NCBI GenBank assembly: GCA_050115495.1
Contig: JASFQK010000008.1
Span: 64,001-128,000, forward strand
From: Phycisphaerae bacterium
GTDB lineage: Bacteria; Planctomycetota; Phycisphaerae; UBA1845; Fen-1342
Direction of reading: 5' to 3'
Length of the DNA: 64,000 bases
Shown: piece after piece, positions 13,642-27,537 of the stretch
How the letters are laid out: every line of letters begins with the position of its first letter
How positions within the stretch are numbered: the first letter of the stretch is position 1
Position numbers and translations under genes: made by a program
Notes under the pieces: generated by a model
What the model saw: only the letters and a program-made list of their open reading frames with translations
Told to the model about the DNA's origin: nothing
Databases searched by the model: none

Positions 13642-14769
13642 TTACGCGCGGAACGTGACCGAGACCGCTTGCAGGGGCTGCGGTCCGTCGGCGGCGAGTC
13701 GGTCGGCGAGGTCGCGGGCCTCCTCCGCCGACGTGCACAGCGTGAAGAACGCCGACCCGGAGCCGGTCATGCGGACGGGGCCGGGGCAGAGTCGGCGGAT
13801 GGCAGTTATCCAGACCCGCAGGTCGGGGTAGGTGGCCAGGGCGGGCTCTTCGAGGTCGTTGAAGAGGATCGCCGACAGGGCGGGCGGGTCGGCGAGGCGG
13901 GCGAGGACGTTGGCGAGGGGCGGGCGGGGCTCGGTCGGCGGGTCGCGGTCCCAGGCGGCATAGACCGCCGGCGTGCGACAGAATCCGCCACCGAGCAGCA
14001 GTATGGCGTGGGTGGTGAGGGGGTCGGCGGCTGGGGCGGCAGGTCGAAGAAGGGGACTGGCGCCGAGCCGGGGGGCCTCGCTGTGCTCAGTTGCCGCCGC
14101 GGGCGAGGTGCCTGTCCCCTCTTCCGACCGTTTGTCGGGGACGTCACGATCGCCGGCGCGCTGGCTTGGTTCGGCGGCGGGCACGCTTGCCGGCGGGCGC
14201 TCAAGCTGCTCGCCGGCAGCGGCAGGTCGGCTTCGGTCGGCGCCGGACTCACTGTCGGTCCGGTCGACGCCCGCGTCGCCTCGTGCCTGACCGGCGAAGA
14301 CGTCCTCGATCTGGTCGCCGCGGCCGCGGAGGATACAGAGCGGGCTGTGGAAGAAGAGTGGCACGTCCGAGCCGAGGGCGGCGCCGATGCGAGCGAGGTC
14401 GGCGACGCCGAGCGACCACAGGTCGTTGAGCAGGGCGAGCGTCGTGGCGGCGTTCGAGCTCCCGCCGCCGAGCCCCGCGCCGGCGGGGATCCGCTTGGCG
14501 AGTTCCAGGTGCACGCCGAAGTCGCTGCCCGTGGCCCGGGCCAGCTCATCGGCGGCCCGAAGGGCCAGGTTCCCCCGGTCGGTCGGCAGGCTCGGGTCGT
14601 CGCAGGAGAGCGTCCGGCGGCCGTCCGGAGCCGGGTGAGCGGTGATCGTGTCGTGCAGCGAGACCCGGGCGACGAGCGACTCGATCTCGTGAAACCCATC
14701 CGGCCGCAAACCAACGACGCGGAGCGTCAGATTGATCTTCGCCGGCGATGAGCGGGTGAGTGGGGGCAT
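13642..14769 (-). CDS. ispE: 4-diphosphocytidyl-2-C-methyl-D-erythritol kinase with a ~85-aa internal insertion
   Basis: SPAKINLTL, DGFHEIES, KRIPAGAGLGGGSSNAA, LGSDVPLF, FNDLE, MTGSGSAFF. Confidence 0.93.
   Translation of the reverse strand: MPPLTRSSPAKINLTLRVVGLRPDGFHEIESLVARVSLHDTITAHPAPDGRRTLSCDDPSLPTDRGNLALRAADELARATGSDFGVHLELAKRIPAGAGLGGGSSNAATTLALLNDLWSLGVADLARIGAALGSDVPLFFHSPLCILRGRGDQIEDVFAGQARGDAGVDRTDSESGADRSRPAAAGEQLERPPASVPAAEPSQRAGDRDVPDKRSEEGTGTSPAAATEHSEAPRLGASPLLRPAAPAADPLTTHAILLLGGGFCRTPAVYAAWDRDPPTEPRPPLANVLARLADPPALSAILFNDLEEPALATYPDLRVWITAIRRLCPGPVRMTGSGSAFFTLCTSAEEARDLADRLAADGPQPLQAVSVTFRA
14042..14129. repeat. Palindromic element inside the ispE coding sequence
   Basis: GGTCGAAGAAGGGGACTGGCGCC ... 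GGTGCCTGTCCCCTCTTCCGACC, imperfect inverted repeats. Confidence 0.7.
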
Positions 14770-14775
14770 GGGGGG

Positions 14776-14804
14776 ATTATACGGGAAGTCACCGGCGCAG
14801 GCAG
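14776..14804 (-). promoter_or_regulatory. Putative sigma70 promoter of ispE (possibly leaderless mRNA)
   Basis: CTGCCT-N17-TATAAT, with -10 ending 6 nt before ATG 14769 and no RBS. Confidence 0.5.
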
Positions 14805-14929
14805 TTGGGATGCGGACGCGCGTGGACTCTCTTGCCGCGGCGTTGGCTGGGAGACTTGAGAAGTGCGGGGGGCCACCAGTCCTGAGCGATTCCGACGAGT
14901 GTCGGGCGACGTTCTCCGACGAAGTCACT

Positions 14930-15973
14930 TCACGCGGTCATGCGCGTGTCCCAGGCTTGCGCCAAGCGTCGCGGCTCGTTTCGCTTCTTCGAGGTAATCC
15001 ACCACTTGCCTCGGCGGGCAGACAATCCTCGGCTGGCCAGCGCGCGCATCACGTGTCGGTCACCGGCTTCAAGTAGTCGCTTGATGTGACGGGCGGGACC
15101 GAAATCGGCCTGCCGGGTGTAGTACATCCAGCCCGCCACCTGCGCTCGTTTGCGTGCAAGCCCTTCGAGGGAATCCGCGCTGACCACCTTCGCCCCACGG
15201 AGGTATGCTTCGGCCAGCGCAAGGGCCTTCGCGGTCTGCTCTGCCACGATCTTCACGCCGCGCCGGTTGTTCACGCGCAGGTTGTGCACTCGTTGCTCGC
15301 GGTGCTGGGCCGCGAATCCGTTCATCCGTAGCTTTCGGGCGTTGATCGACAGACCGTGACCTTCGATTTGCCTCCGCATCGCGTCGCCTGGCCATTCAGC
15401 TAGGCTCGGCGATTGGACCGAGATCACCATGTCGTCATAGGTGCGCGAGTACCGCGAACCGTTCCGCCCGCACGCGGCCGACAGCGCACGATCGGCGTCG
15501 TAAAGGAAGAGGTTCAGCGCATCAGAGCTTACCGGTGAACCTTGTGCCATACGACCACGCACGGTGCACAAGAATGACAGGAGCAGCGCCACGTCCGATC
15601 CAAAACCCATGCCCAGCAGTCGTTTCTTCAATTCAAGCTGGGAGATCGACGGGTAGCAGTCTCGTACGTCTCGTGTGACCACGTAGCGTCGGCCGAGGTG
15701 CCGCCGAGCACTCGTGAAGCATGATCGCGACTTTGCGCCGCCGTGGGCACATGGGTGGGGTGGAACGGCCCGAACCAGGAATCGGTGTAGCTTTCGGAGT
15801 ATCGACTTGGTCTGAGGCTTGGGTGCGTCGATCTCCCTGATCTTCCCGCACACGCGCTTCTGACGCGTCGGTAGAAACGCGGCGTCCATGTTCTTGGCTA
15901 GCGTCCACAGTCTCGCCTCGGACATGCCGACAGCTTTGGCTATGTCAGCGCCCCTCATCGCTTCTGGTTTCAT
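14930..15973 (-). CDS. Retron-like reverse transcriptase with divergent motifs
   Basis: GKIREIDAP, AHGG, SCFTSARRH (region X), TRDVRDCYPSIS, MAQGSPVSS, YSRTYDDMVIS, GLSINARK, QRVHNLRVN (region Y), GWMYY thumb; GGAG RBS. Confidence 0.9.
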   Translation of the reverse strand: MKPEAMRGADIAKAVGMSEARLWTLAKNMDAAFLPTRQKRVCGKIREIDAPKPQTKSILRKLHRFLVRAVPPHPCAHGGAKSRSCFTSARRHLGRRYVVTRDVRDCYPSISQLELKKRLLGMGFGSDVALLLSFLCTVRGRMAQGSPVSSDALNLFLYDADRALSAACGRNGSRYSRTYDDMVISVQSPSLAEWPGDAMRRQIEGHGLSINARKLRMNGFAAQHREQRVHNLRVNNRRGVKIVAEQTAKALALAEAYLRGAKVVSADSLEGLARKRAQVAGWMYYTRQADFGPARHIKRLLEAGDRHVMRALASRGLSARRGKWWITSKKRNEPRRLAQAWDTRMTA

Positions 15974-16295
15974 CCGTCTCCGTCTCCGACGACAACGTTG
16001 ATCTCAGCTCGTCCTCGACAGACAGCATCTTCTGAATCATTGCGACAAGTGCCTGGCTCACTTGGTCTTCGCTCTGCAAACGTCCGTTAGCAGGTTGCGC
16101 GAGAATGATGAGCACCTCCGGCGGAATCCGCAGGGCATTCGCGAGCCGTCGCAACACATCCAGTGACGGCTGCCGCTCGCCGTTTTCGACGAGGCTTAGA
16201 AACGGAATGCTGACGCCTGCATTGTCGGCGAGCGTAGACAGCCGCATCCCTTTTGCAGCCCGCACTATACGAATGGCCTTGCCAAGCTCTAGCAT
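15945..16295 (-). CDS. XRE/Cro-family helix-turn-helix protein, overlapping the RT start
   Basis: LGKAIRIVRAAKGMRLSTLADNAGVSIPFLSLVENGERQPSLDVLRRLANAL; 29-nt overlap with the RT gene. Confidence 0.92.
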   Translation of the reverse strand: MLELGKAIRIVRAAKGMRLSTLADNAGVSIPFLSLVENGERQPSLDVLRRLANALRIPPEVLIILAQPANGRLQSEDQVSQALVAMIQKMLSVEDELRSTLSSETETDETRSDEGR

Positions 16296-16351
16296 TGGCA
16301 GTCCCTTGAGTTCGATCTGTGAGCACACGCGTTACCCATCGCGCGCTGATA

Positions 16352-16648
16352 TCAGGATGCGAGGAGTGTATCGACCTCTGCCTGGAGTTGATCGAACAGC
16401 AGTTCGAGCTTCTCCGCGAGGTCCATAGCCTCCGCCGCGGCCAGGGTCCGACCGTACCGACCGAGTTCTTCGATCAGCGTGGCCAGAGCGACCGCGTCAT
16501 CCATCGACCCCGAAGTCCCCGAGGCTCTCCGCCGCGCCATTTCTGACGAGAGGAGCTTGCGAATCCGGATGGCGCCATCTTCAACGACGCGAAAGAACTC
16601 GCAGGGCCTGGAGGAACTCCCCGACCACACCAACTCATGATGCTGCAT
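16352..16648 (-). CDS. 98-aa small helical protein, candidate effector of the RT operon
   Basis: GGAGG 6 nt before ATG 16648; amphipathic C-terminal helices (DDAVALATLIEELGRY...EKLELLFDQLQAEVDTLL); lies between the structured leader and the HTH gene. Confidence 0.7.
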   Translation of the reverse strand: MQHHELVWSGSSSRPCEFFRVVEDGAIRIRKLLSSEMARRRASGTSGSMDDAVALATLIEELGRYGRTLAAAEAMDLAEKLELLFDQLQAEVDTLLAS

Positions 16649-16649
16649 A

Positions 16650-16900
16650 CGCAGCCTCCATTGGGTTTGGCGGGAAGAGCATCGCTTCCCGTCGGGGTCC
16701 GACCAGCCGGGGACAGTCCCCGGACTCACGATCGGCAGGCCTGGCAGGGGCCAGGCTCCCGCGGCTAGCGCCGCTCCCGGACGAGCCGGGCAACCTCCCC
16801 GCGACACGAGATCCCGGGGCAGGTGAGGGGTTTGGAGGCTTGGTGCGATCGGTTATTCAGTTTTCAACTGGGCGCGGACAAGCCGGTGGCCCACTAAACT
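16650..16900 (-). ncRNA. Putative RT-associated structured ncRNA/leader (retron msr-msd-like position)
   Basis: Seven adjacent hairpins (16671-16823) enclosed by the inverted repeat AGCCTCCA 16653-16660 / TGGAGGCT 16833-16840, directly downstream of a strong promoter. Confidence 0.65.
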
Positions 16901-16906
16901 GCGGGT

Positions 16907-16935
16907 ATTATACCACACAAGTAAAATGGAGTCAA
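16907..16935 (-). promoter_or_regulatory. sigma70 promoter of the RT operon
   Basis: TTGACT-N17-TATAAT with extended -10 TG and an AT-rich upstream region. Confidence 0.85.
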
Positions 16936-17221
16936 CTTTGGTTAAATAATTTTCTCTTTTTCGGACGATCACCTCGCTGCACCGATTGCGCGGTGTGGTG
17001 GTCCTGCAGCGTACACGGCTGCGGGTCAACTCCCTCGCTTTCCGGCGTCAGGACGCCGTAGACGCATTCGTGCACGCGGCGGAGGAGAACTCGGGCCAAG
17101 GCGATCGCGGGTATGGCGCGGCGGGTGGGCTGCGGAGGGGGCACGGCCGGGCGGCAGCGTGTTGGCTGCGGCGCTGTTTTGCTTCTCAGCAGGCGAAAGG
17201 GGTACGTTGCGCCGCGGGGCG

Positions 17222-17788
17222 CTACAGCTCGTCGTCGGGTTGCAGGGGGGAGTGGTGCCAGGGCCAGTAGCTCATGACCGCTGCTTCGTCTTCGTCGAGG
17301 CTGGCGTGGTAGTGATGTGCGTGCGGGCAGGGGAAGCGGAATTCCTGTTGCGTGAAGCCGCGCAGGCGGAGGGTTGCCTCGAACTCGTCCAGCGGGCCGT
17401 AGGCGTAGATCACGTTGTGCTGGTCGTAGACGAGCAGGCCGGGGCCGCTGAAGGACTCCACCCAGACGTGGTGCCGACCGTCCTGCTCGAAGAACGTGCG
17501 GTATGTTTCGAGGAAGCCGCGGACCGCCGCCGGCGAGATGTCGGCGGCCGCGTATCGTCCTGGTGGCCGTTCCTCCCGGCGGGGAGTGAGCAGGACGTAC
17601 AGGACGCCGAACGGGCCAGGGAGCAGGTCGAGCAGGGCCAGGATCAGGTTGATGTGGTCGCGCGACGGACCGATAACGAGGCGCATGGGCCCCGTGGTCT
17701 GCTCGCGATACCAGAGGTCGCCGTATTCGTGCGGCTGCGGCGGCTGGCGCCAGCGGGGGCTGGACAGTTTCGGCAATCTGATCTTCAC
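17222..17788 (-). CDS. Hypothetical protein
   Basis: Good codon usage; FFEQDGRHHVW, LVYDQHNVIYAYG, PHAHHYH. Confidence 0.7.
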   Translation of the reverse strand: MKIRLPKLSSPRWRQPPQPHEYGDLWYREQTTGPMRLVIGPSRDHINLILALLDLLPGPFGVLYVLLTPRREERPPGRYAAADISPAAVRGFLETYRTFFEQDGRHHVWVESFSGPGLLVYDQHNVIYAYGPLDEFEATLRLRGFTQQEFRFPCPHAHHYHASLDEDEAAVMSYWPWHHSPLQPDDEL

Positions 17789-17809
17789 GGTTCCACCGGT
17801 ATAGCAGCC

Positions 17810-17915
17810 GCAGGGCGAGCCTCGCCCGGCGATCGTTCGATTGTCAGTTCGCGGTCACGCCGCGTCGATGGCGTTTCTGGGCGTTCGATTGTGCGGCGGG
17901 TGAGACCCGCCCTAC
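17810..17915. repeat. REPIN-like element (inverted REP pair)
   Basis: GCAGGGCGAGCCTCGCCCGGC ... GGCGGGTGAGACCCGCCCTAC; 17837-17915 differs from 18812-18890 at 8 of 79 positions. Confidence 0.75.
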
Positions 17916-17960
17916 GTGCGGTGTGATCGGCGGGGTGGGAGTGGCGACGTGGCGTGGTGT

Positions 17961-18722
17961 TCATGGCCGGGGCTCGGTGCTGCTGAGACGCAGGCGGAGG
18001 AGGAGGTCGTTGAGGGCGGGGGCGGCGGTGGGGTCGGGTGGTAGGGGGCTGGTGGCGGAGGCGGCTTCGAGGGTGGCGGTCAGGCGGCGGTATTCGTGCT
18101 CGTGGAAGGCGAGATCGGTGTCGGCCAGGGGGTCGTGCTCGCCGCCGGCGGTCTTGCGGGCGATGAGGTCGTCGACGTGCGGGAGGCGGTGGGCCTCGTT
18201 CAGACGGGGGAGGTTCGCCTCGATCTCGCCGGTACGCATTAGGTGCAGGCCGGCCAGCAGCACGCGGTACGTGTAGAGCAGCGGCTTGAGGCGGCGGTGC
18301 TGCTCGACGAGCCGCCACTGCGTGCGGGCGAAGCCGAGGTAATGCAGCGCGTGCTGCTTCGTGACGCAGCCGCGGGCGATGGCCTTCAACTCGTCGTGGA
18401 CGGGCGTCGTGTGCAACACGAGCGGCGAGTAGAGCTGCTCGAGCACGTACCCGTTCGGGCGGAGCAGCAGGCGGAAGAACTTGCGGACGTCGTGCGTGAC
18501 GAGGTCGAGATCGACGCCGGCGGGGCCCGTGGTGCACTCGATCGTCTCGGGCGGCGGCGTTAGACCGATAACTTCGCGGAGCGGCAGCACGTGGACGCCG
18601 CGAAGGTCGTAGTCGGAGTCCGCCGACGGGAAGCCGTAAAGGTGGGCGCCGCTGATGGTGACGAAGAGGAGCGGGTAGGGCTGGGCGGCGATCACGCTTT
18701 GAAGTTGTGGCGGGGCCGGCAT
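17961..18722 (-). CDS. Pol-beta superfamily nucleotidyltransferase (YcgL/RlaP-like, Nuc-transf)
   Basis: ISGAHLYGFPSADSDYDLRGVH, HDVRKFFRLLLRPNGYVLEQLYSP, KPLLYTYRVLL. Confidence 0.88.
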   Translation of the reverse strand: MPAPPQLQSVIAAQPYPLLFVTISGAHLYGFPSADSDYDLRGVHVLPLREVIGLTPPPETIECTTGPAGVDLDLVTHDVRKFFRLLLRPNGYVLEQLYSPLVLHTTPVHDELKAIARGCVTKQHALHYLGFARTQWRLVEQHRRLKPLLYTYRVLLAGLHLMRTGEIEANLPRLNEAHRLPHVDDLIARKTAGGEHDPLADTDLAFHEHEYRRLTATLEAASATSPLPPDPTAAPALNDLLLRLRLSSTEPRP

Positions 18723-18759
18723 GTGGATGAGTCCTTGGGGGCGTTTCGCTCGATCACGC

Positions 18760-18890
18760 TGGCGTTTCTCGGCGTTCGGTCGTGCGGCGGGTGGAACCCG
18801 GCCTACGCGGCTCGATTGTCAGTTCGCGCTCACATCCCGTTCATGGCGTTTCTCGGCGTTCGATTGTGCGGCGGGTGAAACCCGCCCTAC
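18760..18890. repeat. Tandem REP-containing units
   Basis: TGGCGTTTCTCGGCGTTCG..GTGCGGCGGGTG(G/A)AACCCG(G/C)CCTAC repeated at ~84-bp spacing. Confidence 0.75.
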
Positions 18891-18973
18891 CCGGTTGTGG
18901 TTGCCGGCTGTGTGCGGCGCCTTCGGCTCGGAGGCAGTCCGCTTCTTCAACCGCGTGATCGGTCGCGCTTGCG

Positions 18974-19750
18974 TTAGTCAAGGTCGCTGGCGATATTCGA
19001 GACCAATCGGCACTTCTCGCAGCGGAAGTCATAGCGGTCGAGCCACTGCTCGTCGAGCTTCCAGGCTCCGCCGCAGTCCGGACAGCGACGCTGAAGCTCG
19101 GCCCGGCGGCTGCGCCCGTAGTAACGCATCAGGTCGTAATACGTCGGCACGCCGGTGTTGGCTTCGATTAGTCGGCAGACGTCGCGGCCCTCCTCCGCCA
19201 GTTCGCTGTGCGGTTCCGACAACTGTCGATAGGCCAACCGTTCCCCGGCGCCGCTGGCGATCCAGATTGAGTCGAGGTCGCGGTAGTGGTAGGCCCAGAA
19301 TCGCAGGTCCTCGAAGTTGCCGTACTCGCTCGTCGGCGGGATGCGGTACAGCGGCACGACGCCGCCGCATCCGCCGCAACGCAGCGGCGTCTCGCACGAG
19401 AGGAAGTCCGTGGAGAGGATCAGCGCCGGCGGCTTGCGGCAGGTGCAGACCGGGTCCGACTCGGGGTCAGGGCCGAGCACGCGTGTCGAACGCCATTCGA
19501 CGCCGGCTTTGCGCAGAGCGCGTATGGCATCGCGAACCCGCTTGCTGCGATGTTTGGGGTGCAGCGAGTCGGCGTCCGGCAACGACACGTACCAGCGCCA
19601 GCCGCCGCGGATCTCCACAACGGGGGCGTCCTGCTCGATCAACTGCCCGTTTCGCCGGAGTGAGAACAACAACTCGTCGATCGCCCAGCGCACCTCTTCC
19701 GGGTCCGCCTTTCGTTTCTGCCAGGTGAAGGTCAGTTCCGCCGTGTGCAT
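18974..19750 (-). CDS. Zn-ribbon protein (DUF2310-like)
   Basis: LRRNGQL, CTC, PLRCGGC, QLSEPHSELAEEG, PTYYDL, CPDCG, FRCEKCRLVS; GGAGG RBS. Confidence 0.85.
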   Translation of the reverse strand: MHTAELTFTWQKRKADPEEVRWAIDELLFSLRRNGQLIEQDAPVVEIRGGWRWYVSLPDADSLHPKHRSKRVRDAIRALRKAGVEWRSTRVLGPDPESDPVCTCRKPPALILSTDFLSCETPLRCGGCGGVVPLYRIPPTSEYGNFEDLRFWAYHYRDLDSIWIASGAGERLAYRQLSEPHSELAEEGRDVCRLIEANTGVPTYYDLMRYYGRSRRAELQRRCPDCGGAWKLDEQWLDRYDFRCEKCRLVSNIASDLD

Positions 19751-19809
19751 GCTGGGCCTCCCTGGGCGACCGCGGCCCTGTTTCCGCAGGGTCCGTCGAA
19801 TCGCCGGTG

Positions 19810-20781
19810 CTACATATTGTCGTTTCCGAACGTCCGCTGGAACAGGGCCGGGACGATTTCGCCGGCGGTGCCGCGCAACCACACGTCACCGCCACCGGGT
19901 TCGTCCGGATCGATCACGATCAGCTTGGCGCCGGCGGCGCGGGCCCTGGCGGGCAACATGGCCGCGGGCAGGACGACGCCGGACGTGCCGATGATCAGCA
20001 TCACGTCGCAGCGCCGGCTGTCGGACAGGGCTTGGCTCCAGTCCGGCTCGGTCAGCGGCTCGCCGAAAAGCACGGCGCTCGGACGCACCAACCCGCGCCA
20101 GGAGAGACCGGCCAGCGGGCGGATCGCCAGGGCCACACGCAGCAGCGCCATCCAGCTCAGCTCGGCGGCCTCCAGGCGGCGGACGATCCTGGCCAGACCG
20201 GCCCGGGTTAGCAGCCGCACGAAACGCTTGCGCAGCGTAACGACCCGCAGCAGCGAGCCGTGGATCTCGCGGACGGTGGTGCTCCCGGCTTCCTGATGCA
20301 GGCCGTCGACGTTCTGCGTGACCACGGTCACGTTGACGTGCTTCTCGGCGTGGGCGATGGCCTGGTGGGCGGCGTTGGGCTTCGCCTGCGCCAGCGGCCG
20401 CAGCAGCCGGGCCAGGAAGTGGGCGAGTCGCCGCGGACGCCACAGGGCCGTTCGCACCAACCCGGTCCACGTCGCGAACTCGTCGGGCGAGAACTCTGTC
20501 CAGAGTCCGCCGGCAGTGCGGAAGGTGTCGATGCCGCATTCGGCGGAGACGCCCGCGCCGGTGAAGACGACCAGACGCTCGGCGGAGCGCAGGTAGTCGG
20601 CGGCGAGATCCAGATTGTCGCCGGCTGGCGTTATGTCTCGCGTACACTCGTTGGCTGGCGTGATATGGCACGCTCTCCGGTCGCGGTCACGTGATGCAAC
20701 TCCGCCGGGCTTTGATGAGGAAGGCGTTGACGCGGGTGTAGTCGGGGCGGTCCGGTAATGTTGTTCGTTCGTACGCCGCAT
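19810..20781 (-). CDS. Sir2/CobB-family NAD-dependent deacylase (true start uncertain)
   Basis: VFTGAGVSAECGIDTFR, PNAAH, TQNVDGLHQEAG, EIHGS, RPSAVLFGE, IGTSGVVLPAA; the Zn-finger cysteines are absent. Confidence 0.9.
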   Translation of the reverse strand: MRRTNEQHYRTAPTTPASTPSSSKPGGVASRDRDRRACHITPANECTRDITPAGDNLDLAADYLRSAERLVVFTGAGVSAECGIDTFRTAGGLWTEFSPDEFATWTGLVRTALWRPRRLAHFLARLLRPLAQAKPNAAHQAIAHAEKHVNVTVVTQNVDGLHQEAGSTTVREIHGSLLRVVTLRKRFVRLLTRAGLARIVRRLEAAELSWMALLRVALAIRPLAGLSWRGLVRPSAVLFGEPLTEPDWSQALSDSRRCDVMLIIGTSGVVLPAAMLPARARAAGAKLIVIDPDEPGGGDVWLRGTAGEIVPALFQRTFGNDNM

Positions 20782-21625
20782 CGAATCGACGATGTAGCTC
20801 CAGCCGCCAGGCGTCGACGTCGGGCCAGGGGACCTCGCCGCGGCGGATGGCCAGCAGGCGGTCGCGATGCTCGTCGACGGCCACGGGGACCGTCGCTTCG
20901 CGCAGGGCGACGATTCCCGCCAGCAGCAGCCGGATCAGGTGCATGGCGTGCTTCCATTTGATGTCGCGCTGGCTGTTGAGGCGGGCGGAGAGCTTGCGGA
21001 ACTGGCTGAGCACGTAGCCGCCGTAGGTCTGGTAGATGAGCTTCGAGAGGAACGCGGTGCGCAAGTCGAGCAGTTCGCGGGCCAGCGGCGTGGCATGCTC
21101 GACGAGCGGCGTGTAGAGGCACTCGAGGACGTTCGGGTTGGCCTTCAGGGCGAGCGTGAGGAACTTCTGCAATTCCCAGTAGCACTCCTGCGACTGGGCG
21201 TTTTCGAGCTGCTCCGGTACGCCGTAGAGCGACCAGTGCATCTCCGCCGGCGGGAGGTAGACGCCGCGGCGGTCGACGTCGGAGCCTTCGTGGTCGAGGC
21301 CATACGCCCGCGAGCCGACCACGCAGCGGTAGATGACGCAGTCGAGCAGGTCGTAGTCGTCGAGGACGTTGGCGGCGGACCAGATCTGTTCGCGCAATAA
21401 CTGCTTGAGGACGGCGAACTGGTTGCGGCGCAGGGTGGCCTCGCTGCCGTCGGCGAAGCGGACGCGGTAGGAGTGCGTGTGGTCCGCCGGCGACTTGACG
21501 ATGAGGCCGACCGCGCCGGGCGGATGCTGCACGTCGCTGCCGGCGGCCTGGACGCCGATGCGGCTGACGACCTGCGTCCCGGGCGGGACGATGGCGTTCG
21601 GGTCGTAAGCGATCCTGCGGGGCAA
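20687..21625 (-). CDS. Second YcgL/RlaP-like nucleotidyltransferase with an N-terminal SH3-like extension
   Basis: VVGSRAYGLDHEGSDVDRRGVY, WELQKFLTLALKANPNVLECL, WKHAMHLIRLL, LPDRPDY. Confidence 0.9.
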   Translation of the reverse strand: MPRRIAYDPNAIVPPGTQVVSRIGVQAAGSDVQHPPGAVGLIVKSPADHTHSYRVRFADGSEATLRRNQFAVLKQLLREQIWSAANVLDDYDLLDCVIYRCVVGSRAYGLDHEGSDVDRRGVYLPPAEMHWSLYGVPEQLENAQSQECYWELQKFLTLALKANPNVLECLYTPLVEHATPLARELLDLRTAFLSKLIYQTYGGYVLSQFRKLSARLNSQRDIKWKHAMHLIRLLLAGIVALREATVPVAVDEHRDRLLAIRRGEVPWPDVDAWRLELHRRFDAAYERTTLPDRPDYTRVNAFLIKARRSCIT

Positions 21626-23695: not shown

Positions 23696-24547
23696 CTACT
23701 CTTCGACATTCGCTCCCCAGCCGTCGTACTCGCCGCCGTGATCACGGGCGAGGTGGAACAGGCGGATCGTTACCTCAGTGATCTTGTCGGGCTCGACCGA
23801 GTCCACGCGGGTGACGTGCAGGGTCCAGCGTGACTCTTCATCGGACGGCGGCGTTCGGTCGACGACGCGAAAGCCGTCCGCGACGAGGATCTCAGCGACG
23901 CGGTCCAGGCCGTCGCGGCTCTCAAAGTAGAGCCAGTGGTCGACCTCCCGCGGCTTGGTGAGATCGTCACCGTGCGCGCGCAGTCGTGCCAGGACTCTCT
24001 CGTCCTTGATGCGCTGCCAATCATCGTTCGTCGGGTGCAGTGTTCTGCGGTAGACCTCCCAGTCGGGATCTTCACGCAGGTCCAGGCGTGGCCGACGCGA
24101 CGCCAGGTTGGACGTCAACTTACGCAGCAATTCCTGCGTGTGCTCCGGCTGCTCCGTATATATGTAGAGCACGTAGCTCTGCCCATTCACCTGCCGTCCG
24201 GCGTAGCGCTCTGTGTGCGCGTCGAGGCCCTTGTCCAGCGAGTCTTCCAACGCGTAAACGTCCTCGAAATCGTCTGCGCTCGGGAACCCGTTCTCTCGCC
24301 AGGCGCGGGCATCCAGCCGCAGGGTGATTAAGTGCCGGAGATGACCGCCGGCAGAAGGCATTGCTCCCGCGTCGACGTGGATTACCGTGGCTGCATCATC
24401 GGACGCCCGCATGAATGTGACCCAGTCAGCGCTTGGCATTCCTGCCCGTGCCGGCGGCGCTGGCCGCCGCCGGTTCAACTGCCACACGACTAACGCTGCG
24501 GCGACGACGACCGCGAGCGCCAGCATCGCCGGGATTGCCGTCTTCAC
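23696..24547 (-). CDS. DUF695 / RraB-like domain protein
   Basis: N-terminal TM; DPDWEVY; HGDDLTKPREVDHWLYF ... GGEYDGWG. Confidence 0.8.
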   Translation of the reverse strand: MKTAIPAMLALAVVVAAALVVWQLNRRRPAPPARAGMPSADWVTFMRASDDAATVIHVDAGAMPSAGGHLRHLITLRLDARAWRENGFPSADDFEDVYALEDSLDKGLDAHTERYAGRQVNGQSYVLYIYTEQPEHTQELLRKLTSNLASRRPRLDLREDPDWEVYRRTLHPTNDDWQRIKDERVLARLRAHGDDLTKPREVDHWLYFESRDGLDRVAEILVADGFRVVDRTPPSDEESRWTLHVTRVDSVEPDKITEVTIRLFHLARDHGGEYDGWGANVEE

Positions 24548-24656
24548 TTGAGTTCCTCCGCTTGGCGGGCGGATGCCCTTGTCGTTGGGGGCTGCCCCGA
24601 GTGCGTGCAGTATACACGAACGGGGCGACGTCCGGCCGGCTCATGGTTCGGGACTC

Positions 24657-26483
24657 CTACCTCATCCGGAAGATGGGCCCCTTGGGTACGAAGGGCAGGC
24701 TGCGGCCTTCGGGAAGCAGGAAGGCGTGCGGACGCCGGGTGCGGAGGCGGTCGCACCAGCCGTCGGTGATGATCAGGATGGGACCGGCGCGGGGGAAGTC
24801 CTCCGCCTTCTCCAGCAACGTGATGCCCGGTTGCAGGATGGTTCCGCCGCGACCACGCACTTTCACGCGGTCGGCGATCGCATCGGGCGGTAGGTAGCCC
24901 TGGTCGTAGGCGGCGGCATCGCAGAAAACGACACGGACCGTGGGCACATCGCGGCTGACGGCGTACGAGGCGACCGCGCCGAGGGCCTTGCCGAGCAGCT
25001 TGTGGTCCATGGAGTCCGAGGTGTCGATGATCACGCCGAATGTGCGACCGTCCTCGGCACCCTCGATCGGACACCAGCTCGGCCGCGGGATGTCCGGCGT
25101 GGCGGACTGCCGGCGGCTGGGTCGGGCGTACGTGCGGCGTTTCTCCAGCGGGGAGAAGTAGCCGTCGAACCATCGGGCCAGCTCCACCTCCCAGGGAATG
25201 GCTGGCTGCTGGAGTGCGCGGATCTCTTCCACGAGGCCCGCTGGCAGGAAGCCGCGGTTCTCCTGCTCGTGATAGACGAGGCCCTGCGCGAGGCAGTTTC
25301 GGCAGAAGTCGTCGAGAGACATGCCGGTACCCGTTGTTCGCCAGTCCGGAGCACGCGGTTCGATGATGTCGCATTGCTCGATGCCGGCGAGTGTGGCGAG
25401 CTTGCGGTAGCGCCGCAGGTCCGTGACGATCCGATCGTAGACCGCCTCCGCCGACAGGCCCTTCAGTTCGGCGTCGTGGAGCCCGCCGAAGGTCGGGATG
25501 TCGCCGATCTGCATCTCGATGAGCCAGCCGTTGATGACGTAATCGCAGGCGACGTTCCAGAGATACGGTTCGCGGCCGAGGCGTCGCGCACCATGCTGCA
25601 GCCCGACGTGAAGCAGTTCGTGGGCGAGCACGAAGCGCGCCTCCTCCAGCGAAAGGGCCGCCGCCGGATTGATGAGGATTTCGGTATTCTCGATATCGAC
25701 GGCGGCCACGGAGATGCGGAGGCGCTGGCAGATCTTGGGGTCCTCAGTGATTTCGAACGCTTCGGCGAGGGCCCCGAGCAGCGGGTAGCTGCTGATGAAC
25801 CAACTGCGAGCCAGTTGGGCGTTGGTTTGGGTTTGCTTCTGACCGCTCAGACTGTCGAGGCTGCCGGCGGCGACCTGGACCGCCTGGCGGACGGCCTCGG
25901 CGATGCCATCCCTGAGGCAGTCGGGCCAGGGGCGGGGCTGTGCGATCCAGGGGCGGTAGACGCGGTGGCACTTGCGCTCGATGACCATGTCGTTCGTGTT
26001 GCCGGCGGTCCCGAAGTGGCTGAACTCGGGCGGGATGCCCGCGGTGTCGAAGAGCCGATACAGCTCGTGTTCGTCGCGGGCCGGCAGGTCGAGTCGGCCG
26101 CGCATCTCCTCGGGAACTCGGCCGAGCTTCAGGTCGCTCAGGAAGCGGGCGACCACGCAGTCGCAGGCGGTGTTCCAGGCCCGCTGGTTCTCATGCGTCT
26201 GGAAGTGTTCGAGGCCGAGGTGAAGCAGGCAGTGTGCCAGGACGTACGTCCACTCCTCGGGCGTCGCCCGCCGCGTGGGATGAACGTGGATTGCGCCGTT
26301 GGAGGTGACCTGTGCCCAGCCGTCCGCGGGACAGCGCGAATGCTGTTTGCGGTGTACGTCGGCGCGCATCCAGAGCGGGGTGAACATCGGATGTTGCCTG
26401 ATGGCCGCGGCGGCCTGCTCGAAGTTGCGCGTCGCCGGATCGAGCCTGTCTTGCTGTGATTTGCGTCTACTTCGACGTGCCAT
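24657..26483 (-). CDS. DUF2201-type metallopeptidase + VWA-like domain protein
   Basis: VLAHCLLH...WNTACD and VLAHELLH...WNVACDYVIN (duplicated), RPSRR, IDTSDSM, RGRGGT, IITDG. Confidence 0.85.
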   Translation of the reverse strand: MARRSRRKSQQDRLDPATRNFEQAAAAIRQHPMFTPLWMRADVHRKQHSRCPADGWAQVTSNGAIHVHPTRRATPEEWTYVLAHCLLHLGLEHFQTHENQRAWNTACDCVVARFLSDLKLGRVPEEMRGRLDLPARDEHELYRLFDTAGIPPEFSHFGTAGNTNDMVIERKCHRVYRPWIAQPRPWPDCLRDGIAEAVRQAVQVAAGSLDSLSGQKQTQTNAQLARSWFISSYPLLGALAEAFEITEDPKICQRLRISVAAVDIENTEILINPAAALSLEEARFVLAHELLHVGLQHGARRLGREPYLWNVACDYVINGWLIEMQIGDIPTFGGLHDAELKGLSAEAVYDRIVTDLRRYRKLATLAGIEQCDIIEPRAPDWRTTGTGMSLDDFCRNCLAQGLVYHEQENRGFLPAGLVEEIRALQQPAIPWEVELARWFDGYFSPLEKRRTYARPSRRQSATPDIPRPSWCPIEGAEDGRTFGVIIDTSDSMDHKLLGKALGAVASYAVSRDVPTVRVVFCDAAAYDQGYLPPDAIADRVKVRGRGGTILQPGITLLEKAEDFPRAGPILIITDGWCDRLRTRRPHAFLLPEGRSLPFVPKGPIFRMR

Positions 26484-27537
26484 CACCCCGCTCCGCCAAA
26501 CGAGGCAGGTCGCGGACGATCTCGACCATGAGCCAGCCGGGGAGGCCGGCGTCCGTGTCGGATTTCGCCACGACCATCTGCGCAATCTCCAGGCTGATCG
26601 ACGCCAGGTCTTTCATCAGGGCCTTGGCCCGGTGGGCGAGTTGCCGCTGCTGACCGGTGACGGCCGCCGTCTCGGCCGGGAGTTCCTTGATCAACTGGGC
26701 CCGGAACGACTGGGCGAGGAAGTACAAGACGTCGCGGTCGCCGGCGTCGTGCGGCCAGCCGACGTCGCCCTTGAGAATGGCGGCGAGCTGGTAGCGGCTG
26801 CGGATCTGCTTCACGAACGCCTTGAACTGCCCAGCGTGGTGTGGCGAGAGGCAGCCGAAGGCCAGCACTTCGAGCTGTCGATCGCCGAGCCGGTCGCCGT
26901 ACTCCCTCATGGCGTCGCTGAGGATGTGCCAAGCTCGGGGCGAGGAAAAGGGCTCTTCATGCTTGGGCGGTTGGCTCCACAGGTGGTCGGGTCGGTTCTG
27001 GATGTACTCGACGATCGTCTGGTGCACCTCGTTTTGATAGGCCCAGTCGAGCCAGTCGCGGTGCGACACGGTGAGGTGCACGTGCACCATGCGATTCAGG
27101 AGGGCCGACGACATGGGTTTGACGATGGCGCTGTCCTGCGATCGGTTGCCCGCTCCGATGACGATCGAACCTTGTGGAAGCTCGAAGTCGCCCACGCGCC
27201 GGTCCTGAATGAGGCTATAGAACGACTTCTGCACTTCGTGCGTGCAGGCGTTCAACTCGTCCAGGAACAGGCAGTACGGCTCTTCCCGGGCGATCATGCT
27301 GGGCGGGCAGAACCGGCTCTTGCCGTCCGTGATCTGGGGCACGCCGATGATGTCCTCCGGGGCCAATTGGCTGCCGAGGAGGGAGACGCAGGGCATGCCG
27401 AGGTGGGCCGCGAACTGCTGCACGATCGACGATTTGCCGATGCCGGGCGCGCCCCAGATGAAGACGGGGCGCACGATCGCAACGTTTAACAGGAAATCAG
27501 AGAGCTCTTTCTGCGTAACCGTTCTTGCCGGATTCAT
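26467..27537 (-). CDS. MoxR/dynein-related AAA+ ATPase
   Basis: GAPGIGKS (Walker A), LFLDELN (Walker B), GAGN, MSSALLNR, SPRAW; overlaps the VWA partner. Confidence 0.92.
   Translation of the reverse strand: MNPARTVTQKELSDFLLNVAIVRPVFIWGAPGIGKSSIVQQFAAHLGMPCVSLLGSQLAPEDIIGVPQITDGKSRFCPPSMIAREEPYCLFLDELNACTHEVQKSFYSLIQDRRVGDFELPQGSIVIGAGNRSQDSAIVKPMSSALLNRMVHVHLTVSHRDWLDWAYQNEVHQTIVEYIQNRPDHLWSQPPKHEEPFSSPRAWHILSDAMREYGDRLGDRQLEVLAFGCLSPHHAGQFKAFVKQIRSRYQLAAILKGDVGWPHDAGDRDVLYFLAQSFRAQLIKELPAETAAVTGQQRQLAHRAKALMKDLASISLEIAQMVVAKSDTDAGLPGWLMVEIVRDLPRLAERGDGTSK

Follow-up and report, generated by a model that had tools for sequence, protein, structure and literature searches.

Type VI is the least understood type of retron. 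As set out in the main text of the retron classification of Mestre et al. (2020, PMC7736814), it joins a clade-3 reverse transcriptase (RT) to a small helix-turn-helix (HTH) protein of Cro/C1 type and to small accessory proteins predicted to be three-helix bundles. The HTH protein, cluster 2_1, is 91-110 aa long and is encoded upstream of the RT gene or overlaps it, and the same text gives no type VI non-coding RNA as found by 2020 (PMC7736814). The small proteins (SPs) belong to clusters cl2075, cl2760, cl3272 or cl3897 or are unclustered ("Large"), and a heterogeneous "Large" lineage with unclustered SPs is included in type VI in the main text of a recent preprint (10.64898/2026.04.27.721009). 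The locus described here is a minus-strand operon in a 64,000-nt stretch of DNA from a Phycisphaerae bacterium (contig JASFQK010000008.1, positions 64,001 to 128,000). The whole stretch is termed the window, and the window RT plus the loci of its relatives are termed the window family. The operon is probably a type VI-style retron, a phage-defence unit whose RT belongs to a divergent, mostly planctomycete lineage standing beside classical type VI.

Two type VI retrons, both from Gammaproteobacteria, are described in the main text of recent preprints. Retron-Vpa2 of Vibrio parahaemolyticus produces a hybrid RNA of ~470 nt that combines msr-msd with the coding sequence of a toxic SP (Zhang et al., 10.1101/2025.10.22.683967). 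The ribosome site of the SP is sequestered, the HTH protein represses reverse transcription, and multicopy single-stranded DNA (msDNA) de-represses SP translation; toxicity of the SP needs its hydrophobic C-terminal core (10.1101/2025.10.22.683967). In Retron-Sen3 the SP is a toxin and the HTH protein its antitoxin. The Sen3 RNA has a 5′ stem-loop, a ribosome-binding site (RBS) in a basal stem and a pairing of two inverted repeats, IR1 and IR2, that flank the SP sequence, and Sen3-type SPs are amphipathic helical proteins (Garcia-Rodriguez et al., 10.64898/2026.04.27.721009). The two accounts conflict over control, which is translational in Vpa2 (10.1101/2025.10.22.683967) and post-translational in Sen3 (10.64898/2026.04.27.721009). 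From both descriptions, the order promoter, RNA, SP, HTH, RT is the published type VI layout. Planctomycetes are not mentioned in the main text of Mestre et al. (2020) or of the Vpa2 and Sen3 preprints, and a literature search on retrons in Planctomycetes found nothing on such a lineage by title or start of abstract.

A conserved SP-HTH-RT operon

On the minus strand of 14930-16954, a promoter is followed by a leader, an SP open reading frame (ORF), an HTH gene and an overlapping RT gene (Table 1). The best PADLOC model for the RT is RT_VI (3.6e-38, 129.5 bits) and that for the HTH protein is HTH_VI (4.1e-19, 66.6 bits, with the next family at 28 bits); in Pfam the two match RVT_1 (1e-9) and HTH_3 (3e-12). 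An earlier note on this DNA had taken the RT and HTH pair for type VI architecture, and these matches bear that out. Its list of elements (promoter, leader of ~250 nt, 98-aa ORF, HTH gene and overlapping 347-aa RT) likewise agrees with the positions found. So does its picture of a lower-GC unit next to ispE: G+C is 0.58-0.62 across ~15400-16600 as against 0.65-0.75 in ispE and 0.67-0.72 upstream. The ispE gene, which encodes GHMP kinase domains (Pfam), lies directly 3′ of the RT gene. To judge from the hidden Markov model matches, defence-annotation tools probably already label the locus retron VI.

In a protein collection clustered at 90%, the RT has 114 relatives at E<=1e-3, of which 111 are strong (~110 RT clusters). 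Named relatives among these are few and come from Planctomycetota, except for one Chloroflexi metagenome-assembled genome (MAG). The loci fetched number 27, from 16 genome and 11 metagenome records. The SP-HTH-RT order is kept in 23 of the 27, which are all 23 with enough upstream DNA; in the other four the contig breaks off 2-456 nt before the RT, with the HTH gene still visible in two of them. Synteny holds down to 35% RT identity, locus L002 being likewise SP-HTH-RT, and no locus long enough to hold the three ORFs has any of them disrupted. The earlier note had raised the possibility that homologous RTs lack the HTH gene, the small ORF or the structured leader; instead, 23/23 loci keep them.

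Within the operon, the HTH ORF spans 16328-15945 and has a conserved ATG at 16295. A spacer of 56 nt separates the SP stop from the HTH start, and the RT gene overlaps the HTH gene by 29 nt.

Table 1. Features of the operon (positions in the window) and the basis of each
Feature	Position	Strand	Basis and remarks
AT-rich element upstream of −35	16940..16954	-	leader alignment, shuffles; candidate HTH operator or UP element
Sigma-70-type promoter TTGACT-N17-TATAAT, extended −10 TG	16907..16935	-	motif scan
Structured non-coding leader, candidate msr-msd part of hybrid RNA	16649..16900	-	fold, covariance model; start predicted from −10
5′ hairpin P0	16869..16894	-	separate minimum free energy (MFE) folds
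Conserved single-stranded box, family consensus CTCTTTGACAAT, window reads GTTGAAAACTGAAT	16855..16868	-	leader alignment
Anti-Shine-Dalgarno box AGCCUCCA	16833..16840	-	MFE fold, leader alignment
Hairpin P6, 5′ strand = IR1 (16725-16734)	16699..16735	-	folds, pair counts (helices 7-9 of covariance model R1)
Shine-Dalgarno region UGGAGGCU of SP	16653..16660	-	GGAGG 6 nt before ATG
SP, 98 aa, stop included	16352..16648	-	ORF conserved in 23/23 loci; candidate effector or toxin
Hairpin right after SP stop codon	16325..16346	-	alignment of 23 intergenic regions
IR2 box CUCACAGAUCG, partner of IR1	16313..16323	-	covariation on plain MAFFT alignment
HTH protein, 116 aa, Cro/C1 type, C-terminal helical extension	15945..16295	-	HTH_3, HTH_VI; candidate antitoxin, repressor
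Retron-type RT, 347 aa, motif C TYDD (codons within 15428-15442)	14930..15973	-	RVT_1, RT_VI
550-nt RNA-library contig = leader + SP + 15 nt	16337..16886	-	identical contig, metatranscriptome run X2

The leader RNA and a covarying long-range helix

The window leader has a stable predicted fold (z = -2.18; 1 of 200 shuffles was as stable). Leaders of the window family are homologous and keep one order of parts, namely the AT-rich element, the −35, a 5′ hairpin, a single-stranded box, a CCUCC-like box, hairpins and the Shine-Dalgarno (SD) sequence. The 5′ hairpin, P0, is present in seven of eight leaders folded separately by MFE, the stretch available for L055 beginning too late. The sequence of P0 differs in each relative and the hairpin itself is always there. 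The single-stranded box, CTCTTTGACAAT, provides the best conserved columns of the leader alignment (A3). A CCUCC- or CUCC-like box stands at the same place in 21/21 aligned leaders; in the MFE fold of the window its partner is the SD, as it is in five of the eight separately folded leaders. A purine run resembling an SD, GGAGG or nearly so, precedes the start codon in 22 of 23 relatives; in L042 the start concerned is a corrected ATG 12 nt downstream.

Past the SP stop, the conserved box IR2 is complementary to IR1, the 5′ strand of hairpin P6. Pairs of this helix were counted on an alignment of the whole RNA made by MAFFT alone, unfitted to any structure. They give 74% of cells paired, compared with 24-51% in slid controls, and the first four pairs form in 18 of the 20 loci with letters there. 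Covariation is clear: alignment pair 197:689 is GC in 11 loci, AU in 7 and GU in 1, and pair 198:688 is GC in 13, AU in 5 and GU in 1. As IR1 also pairs locally, in P6, the local and the long-range folds are mutually exclusive. A hairpin just after the SP stop is kept with differing sequences in the window, L037, L039 and L041 (read by eye).

A covariance model, R1, was built from an 8-leader seed; RNAalifold on a 21-leader MAFFT alignment returned four pairs only, because that alignment is too poor. Outside the seed, R1 recovers three loci (E 2e-6, 5e-4 and 5e-3), each over its full length and where the leader is expected, and it has no match in 28 loci of other RT types. The features of a type VI hybrid RNA found here comprise the structured leader, the CCUCC box over the RBS of the SP, a long-range inverted repeat from the leader to just past the SP stop, and an RNA-library contig over leader and SP.

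That contig comes from metatranscriptome run X2 (wetland), in which three contigs are identical to the unit; such contigs show presence only, DNA in the library being possible. The 550-nt contig runs from 14 nt past the predicted leader start to 15 nt past the SP stop with zero mismatches. A 476-nt contig covers 15824-16299 (HTH and RT start) and a 156-nt contig covers 14867-15022 (RT end); the contig-free parts (16887-17400, 16300-16336, 15023-15823 and 14400-14866) are no evidence of absence. Contig depth is 35.1 for leader plus SP as against 3.1 and 2.9 for the HTH/RT contigs, depths that are not valid for ranking genes. The leader plus SP RNA may be the abundant species, as in Vpa2.

No 7-nt direct-repeat pair is kept family-wide, and the repeats present are subgroup-specific. 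The repeat CCCGGCT occurs in P3 (16776-16790) and P6 of the window and of L031; L057 and L055 have a shifted repeat containing CCGGCT in both of these positions, and other subgroups have other repeats elsewhere. The CCCGGCT repeats may perhaps correspond to the msd-loop and riboregulator repeats described for Vpa2.

The promoter and an upstream AT-rich element

The promoter matches the sigma-70 consensus at 11 of 12 positions and carries a TG before the −10. It is the single such site in 14500-17600 (3.1 kb; 50 shuffles gave a mean of 0.4). Of 23 related loci, 21 have a TTGAC-like −35 in the corresponding position; the remaining two are truncated by the contig end.

Lying 4-6 nt upstream of the −35, the AT-rich element keeps its position in the leader alignment. 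It has perfect palindrome arms of at least 5 nt in 9/21 loci, and in 6/21 no more than 5% of shuffles equal or better the palindrome. The element of the window is a weak palindrome, with a 4-nt arm that is equalled in 17% of shuffles. Relatives show clean palindromes, for example GGTTAAT-TT-ATTAACC and GGAAAA-TTTC-TTTTCC, whose half-sites change together; the element was considered upstream of the −35 in L038, L039, L041, L045, L046 and L055. It is a candidate operator for the HTH protein, with an UP element as the alternative.

The small protein and its HTH partner

The Met start of the SP is conserved in 21 of 23 aligned relatives, and homologues in complete loci are 92-103 aa long (that of L053 is cut by the contig end). 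Differences at the three codon positions are 0.47/0.41/0.61 for the SP and 0.49/0.33/0.67 for the HTH gene; since most change is at the third position, both evolve as coding sequence. Searched against 1.84 billion proteins, a profile of 21 SPs matches 186 representative clusters (50% identity; E<=1e-3), nearly all of them stand-alone proteins of 90-106 aa. The SP has no family in Pfam or PADLOC, and an ESM Atlas search gave no usable match. The AlphaFold2 model, with a predicted local distance difference test (pLDDT) value of 85.3 and a predicted template modelling score of 0.76, is a three-helix bundle (helices 15-40, 46-66 and 71-97), and both this fold and the position of the gene fit a type VI accessory protein. 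Read directly from the sequence, the N-terminal half is basic and the C-terminal half acidic and amphipathic.

The HTH protein is aligned by hhalign with that of a classical type VI locus of Agrobacterium rubi at 98% probability and 32% identity over 66 columns. At 116 aa it slightly exceeds the published range and otherwise fits the type VI HTH protein. Modelled together, the SP and the HTH protein reach a complex score of 0.70 (runs 0.61, 0.76 and 0.70), as against 0.02 for the best of three controls. The score mark is reached by 116 of 157 solved complexes and by 2 of 215 mismatched pairs, counts that apply here only approximately, since the present models were made with alignments built for this analysis. 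At least 80% of contacts are common to the runs, the partner pLDDT is at least 74, and the modelled interface involves HTH residues 10-15 and 56-101. The model supports direct binding of the SP by the HTH protein.

The reverse transcriptase

RT_VI is the top model in seven of the eight family RTs with ranked matches (the window and six of seven others), and all 29 RTs of alignment A1 match RT_VI with the best E-value of any family. Compared with solved chains, the 29-RT profile matches the retron RT Ec86 at 1.9e-29, followed by Ec67, Kva2, Ec83 and Ec78 (to 1e-14); group II intron and DRT2 RTs reach only ~1e-10 to 1e-11. A defence-associated RT (DRT) or unknown-group (UG) RT was considered and rejected, the nearest solved chains being retron RTs and the PADLOC matches being to retrons only.

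Within the family (37-77% identity), 29/29 members show no variation at the catalytic residues D180/D181, at the aspartate of motif A or in QGSP. The NAXXH motif is SAxxH in the window family and NAxxH or DAxxH in classical type VI, with A89 and H92 invariant in the family and in five classical type VI RTs. A C-terminal extension of ~70 aa (~275-347; 14930-15150 in the window) reads RQAxFSPAR...GDR...KWW...RNEPxRLAxxW. Residues W324, W325 and W341 are invariant, and the extension is absent from alphaproteobacterial type VI RTs.

Weighing the assignment to type VI

A number of observations on the RT, the SP and the leader speak against a type VI-style retron, and they are set out here with the alternatives on which they bear. 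For the window RT, the model RT_III-A is close behind RT_VI (115.4 versus 129.5 bits), and family member P0083 scores RT_III-A one bit above RT_VI. The window family reaches 107-133 bits to RT_VI, its margin over the runner-up model being -1 to +18 bits. Classical RT_VI retrons, by comparison, reach 297-311 bits in Alphaproteobacteria and 212-227 in two Planctomycetota genomes, with margins of 44-170, and other retron RTs of the same phylum reach 181-383 bits to their own best model.

Two RT motifs also depart from the expected. YxDD reads TYDD in the near relatives of the window and xADD in the rest, with loss of the aromatic residue, and the VTG triplet, a retron criterion, reads V/I-H-N/S/G, H230 being invariant and the G not. 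Classical type VI RTs aligned alongside have YIDD, FVDD and WVDD in motif C and ITG, VTG and VLG in the triplet. These substitutions could be those of a decayed or non-defence remnant, an HTH-regulated operon kept for regulation whose RT no longer polymerises. Such a remnant is very improbable in view of the catalytic DD, motif A aspartate and QGSP that all 29 family members retain, the three ORFs left intact wherever there is room, and the excess of third-position change in the SP and HTH genes.

Phylogeny gives a divided answer. In a tree of 65 RTs (29 window-family and 10 classical type VI rows, with type IV and V references absent), the window family separates as a single clade (support 100), whose stem measures 1.22 changes per column. 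Classical type VI is a separate clade (support 95) in which the family is not nested, and the base of the tree is unresolved. When the family and classical type VI are held together, the log likelihood is 2.75 above that of the free quick search and the approximately unbiased (AU) test gives p-AU 0.614. As the constrained tree is slightly better and is not rejected, a sister position is compatible with the data.

The long stem, the separate clade, the low scores to PADLOC retron models and the 23-27% identity of the window RT to classical type VI RTs would also suit a separate retron type. Such a type would have its own RT lineage with altered VTG and YxDD motifs, its own C-terminal domain and its own SP family, and would have the HTH module and operon logic in common with type VI by ancestry or exchange. 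The C-terminal extension with its invariant WW, the SP unrelated to the classical SP candidate and the presence of classical RT_VI retrons (L014 and L027) alongside in the phylum point the same way. A separate type is nonetheless thought unlikely: RT_VI is still the best model for nearly all family RTs with ranked matches, the tree that joins the family to classical type VI is not rejected, the HTH protein is plainly homologous to that of type VI, and the leader architecture is that of Sen3 and Vpa2. The published "Large" lineage with its unclustered SPs may, moreover, hold the window family. The suggestion in the earlier note of a possible new subtype stands, as there is no close match to a described type VI retron.

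The SP differs from known type VI SPs. Compared by hhalign with one classical SP candidate (A. rubi), it gives a probability of 0.1; it is longer (98 aa) than the SPs of Vpa2 (55 aa) and Sen3 (79 aa), and its C-terminus is acidic and amphipathic, whereas that of Vpa2 is hydrophobic. It could be that the SP is not a toxin at all but an adaptor, chaperone or nucleic-acid-binding partner of the HTH protein or RT, with arrest arising from, for example, an HTH-RT-RNA complex or a host target. The lack of the hydrophobic C-terminal core needed by the Vpa2 SP, an arginine-rich N-terminal helix, the absence of any toxin family match, and a Foldseek search of the model against PDB that found generic helical bundles only, none at E<=1e-3, agree with such a role. 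It is quite unlikely all the same, because position, size class, SD occlusion and predicted tight HTH binding are as in type VI SP toxins, and Sen3-type SPs are also amphipathic helical proteins.

As for the leader, a shuffled SD gives a duplex with the anti-SD as strong as the real one does (2/21 loci at <=5%), and the CCUCC box is the best SD partner in just 9/21 loci. The pair counts for R1 were made on an alignment fitted to R1 itself: 75.2% of cells are paired versus 41-51% with partners slid, double changes occur in 36 of 59 pairs versus 14-23, and the covariation score is 0.236 versus 0.07-0.09. Helix 1 of the model (CCUCC:SD) has 81% of cells paired and double changes in 4/7 pairs. With filters off, R1 has no significant match in 12 distant (Pirellulales-type) loci. 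Weak matches at the expected place (L036, E 0.06; L002, 0.24; L038, 0.33; L052, 0.46) lie among chance matches, and for the Pirellulales-type half of the family R1 is therefore no proof that the fold is shared. In the leader, neither an msd or priming G nor an a1/a2 pair or branching G is assignable, and an Rfam scan of 14000-18000 at E<=10 found no retron-related family. The Rfam candidates mir-2320, Guanidine-III and HgcC were rejected, all being far under their gathering scores.

Distribution and genomic neighbourhood

The family is represented in 16 genome records, 14 of them Planctomycetota by title. The other two loci, each a complete unit, lie on short contigs: L037 (PXDM01000406.1, 2.5 kb) was assigned to the bin of a Rhodobacteraceae MAG and L044 (JBBDHZ010000124.1, 4.9 kb) to that of a Candidatus Paceibacterota MAG, through either mis-binning or transfer outside Planctomycetota. 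Among 401 sampled genomes of the phylum, the family is found in the genome of the window and in G197 only; the other 76 RT matches are to other retron-type RTs, at 78-144 bits. The family was not found in six of six genomes of the same genus, which are 84-93% complete and all contain ispE, or in 30/30 relatives comprising these six and 24 others, three of which have other weak RT matches. From its absence in the relatives searched, the unit is accessory and probably an acquired insert. A scan of viral contigs found no relative of the family, and tblastn against plasmids found retron RTs of other kinds, 23-30% identical, and one classical type VI locus.

Upstream of the retron, a run of accessory-looking genes occupies 17222-21625 (minus strand). 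A 188-aa ORF matches no family and is found in 0/30 relatives. It is accompanied, in order, by an RlaP nucleotidyltransferase (PF10127, 17961-18722), a DUF2310 zinc-ribbon protein (18974-19882), a SIR2 protein (19810-20781, minus strand) and a second RlaP (20687-21625, minus strand). None of the genes in 17222-21625 matches a PADLOC model; they may form an RNA-repair or conflict island.

Further upstream, 23696-27537 (minus strand) encodes an RraB/DUF695 protein (23696-24547) and a DUF2201 putative metallopeptidase with a VWA-like domain (24657-26585), which overlaps a MoxR-type AAA_5 ATPase (26467-27537).

On the other side of the unit, ispE (13642-14769, minus strand) encodes 375 aa, of which same-genus orthologues match only residues ~2-160 and ~246-369. 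The middle ~90 residues, rich in Ala, Pro and Arg, look like an insertion specific to the genome of the window. In one same-genus genome, prfA lies directly upstream of ispE.

Proposed mechanism and its significance

Toxicity of the SP, an antitoxin role for the HTH protein, cDNA synthesis, a trigger and defence are inferred by analogy with Vpa2 and Sen3. A strong constitutive promoter would drive a hybrid RNA of ~550 nt, whose 5′ half would be a multi-hairpin RNA for RT recognition and template and whose 3′ half would encode the SP, the putative effector. In the resting fold, the SP ribosome site would be paired with the CCUCC box near the 5′ end; in a second and exclusive fold, IR1 of the leader would be joined to IR2 past the SP stop. 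The HTH protein, from the next gene, would hold the SP by direct binding through its C-terminal helices and would probably also restrain the promoter and/or the RT. The RT, presumed to be translationally coupled to the HTH gene by the 29-nt overlap, would use part of the leader as template for single-stranded DNA. On phage infection, this DNA or the HTH-SP complex would change in amount or fate; release or translation of the SP would follow, and growth of the infected cell would stop.

A further reading goes beyond this scheme. The family might constitute a new retron type, mostly restricted to Planctomycetota, whose RT has departed from the VTG and YxDD consensus and acquired a C-terminal domain with WW. 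Its partner would be a new acidic three-helix SP with a mode of action different from membrane insertion, and IR1 would be a two-state RNA switch whose state is set by the RT or cDNA. The SP would be silent when IR1 is in its local hairpin, the alternative being the helix with IR2 beyond the SP stop. There is a small chance that this is so; it would then be a case of a retron RNA, expressed in situ, with covariation-supported alternative folds that couple reverse transcription to translation.

For a type VI-style retron, the reading preferred here, the window lineage provides a distant and well-populated comparison set: its RT clusters (90%) and 186 SP clusters (50%). The hybrid-RNA layout has been kept while nearly all else changed, and the conserved parts therefore point to what is essential. 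These are the 5′ hairpin with the single-stranded box, the CCUCC box, the alternative pairing of IR1 and IR2, and the C-terminal helices of the HTH protein that are predicted to hold the SP. Of these, the IR1-IR2 helix, with its covariation, offers a switch model open to direct test. The VTG and YxDD hallmarks, moreover, can be lost in a conserved retron RT lineage, which matters for RT classifiers.

Comparison with known retrons

With canonical retrons such as Ec86/Eco1, the window locus has in common a retron-type RT, a structured RNA upstream and the logic of a defence system. It differs in that its RNA contains coding sequence and that its effector would be a small protein under the control of RNA and HTH. 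Of the canonical hallmarks VTG, a1/a2 pair and branching G, the first is not kept and the others are not assignable in the window.

Classical type VI is represented by the locus on A. rubi plasmid NZ_CP049211.1 (L068; RT_VI 299 bits, next model 139; HTH_VI 121.7 bits), by four alphaproteobacterial relatives of it (297-311 bits to RT_VI), and by L014 and L027 of Planctomycetota (212 and 227 bits). As the latter two occur in one phylum with the window family, two type VI-like lineages coexist in Planctomycetota. In L027 the HTH gene overlaps the RT gene and a small ORF is found upstream. L068 has an unannotated 63-aa ORF (1377-1568) with a hydrophobic C-terminus, situated between a ~370-nt gap and the HTH gene, which is probably its SP. 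Like the window, classical loci have a homologous HTH gene overlapping the RT start and, upstream, a small ORF and a gap of several hundred nucleotides. Unlike the window family, they reach 212-311 bits to RT_VI as against 107-133, are without the ~70-aa C-terminal extension and have SP candidates of 46-63 aa.

Vpa2 shows the same order of promoter, structured RNA, SP, HTH and RT. Its hybrid RNA, of ~470 nt, is comparable to the 550-nt RNA-library contig, its SP ribosome site is likewise in a stem, and a 3′ segment pairs back to the 5′ part. There are differences: its RT has YADD where the window has TYDD (the window RT being set apart by comparison with classical type VI RTs, at 23-27%, and not with Vpa2 itself), and its 55-aa SP has a hydrophobic, aromatic C-terminus whereas the 98-aa SP of the window is acidic and amphipathic. 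Its 7-nt direct repeat has no family-wide counterpart here, and no long msd-like stem is assignable. Vpa2 has been characterised by experiment, and the window lineage is known from sequence, models and RNA-library contigs.

The likeness to Sen3/cl2075 extends further into the RNA. Both have a 5′ stem-loop upstream of the basal stem, the RBS in the basal stem, several internal stem-loops, and an IR1 that pairs with IR2 just past the SP stop, giving two alternative folds. In Sen3 the HTH protein is proposed to bind the SP, as the complex model also supports here. Sen3 belongs to another RT subclade and host phylum, and its SP family differs as far as is testable. The main text of the Sen3 preprint reports no statistically significant covariation for IR1-IR2, in contrast to the window family.

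The earlier note had given RT plus HTH as the type VI architecture. The small ORF and the structured leader are no additions to it: in the published systems they are canonical parts, the SP toxin and the hybrid RNA, and the novelty of the locus is therefore much lower than had been judged. The window lineage widens the known type VI-style layout and founds no new kind of system.

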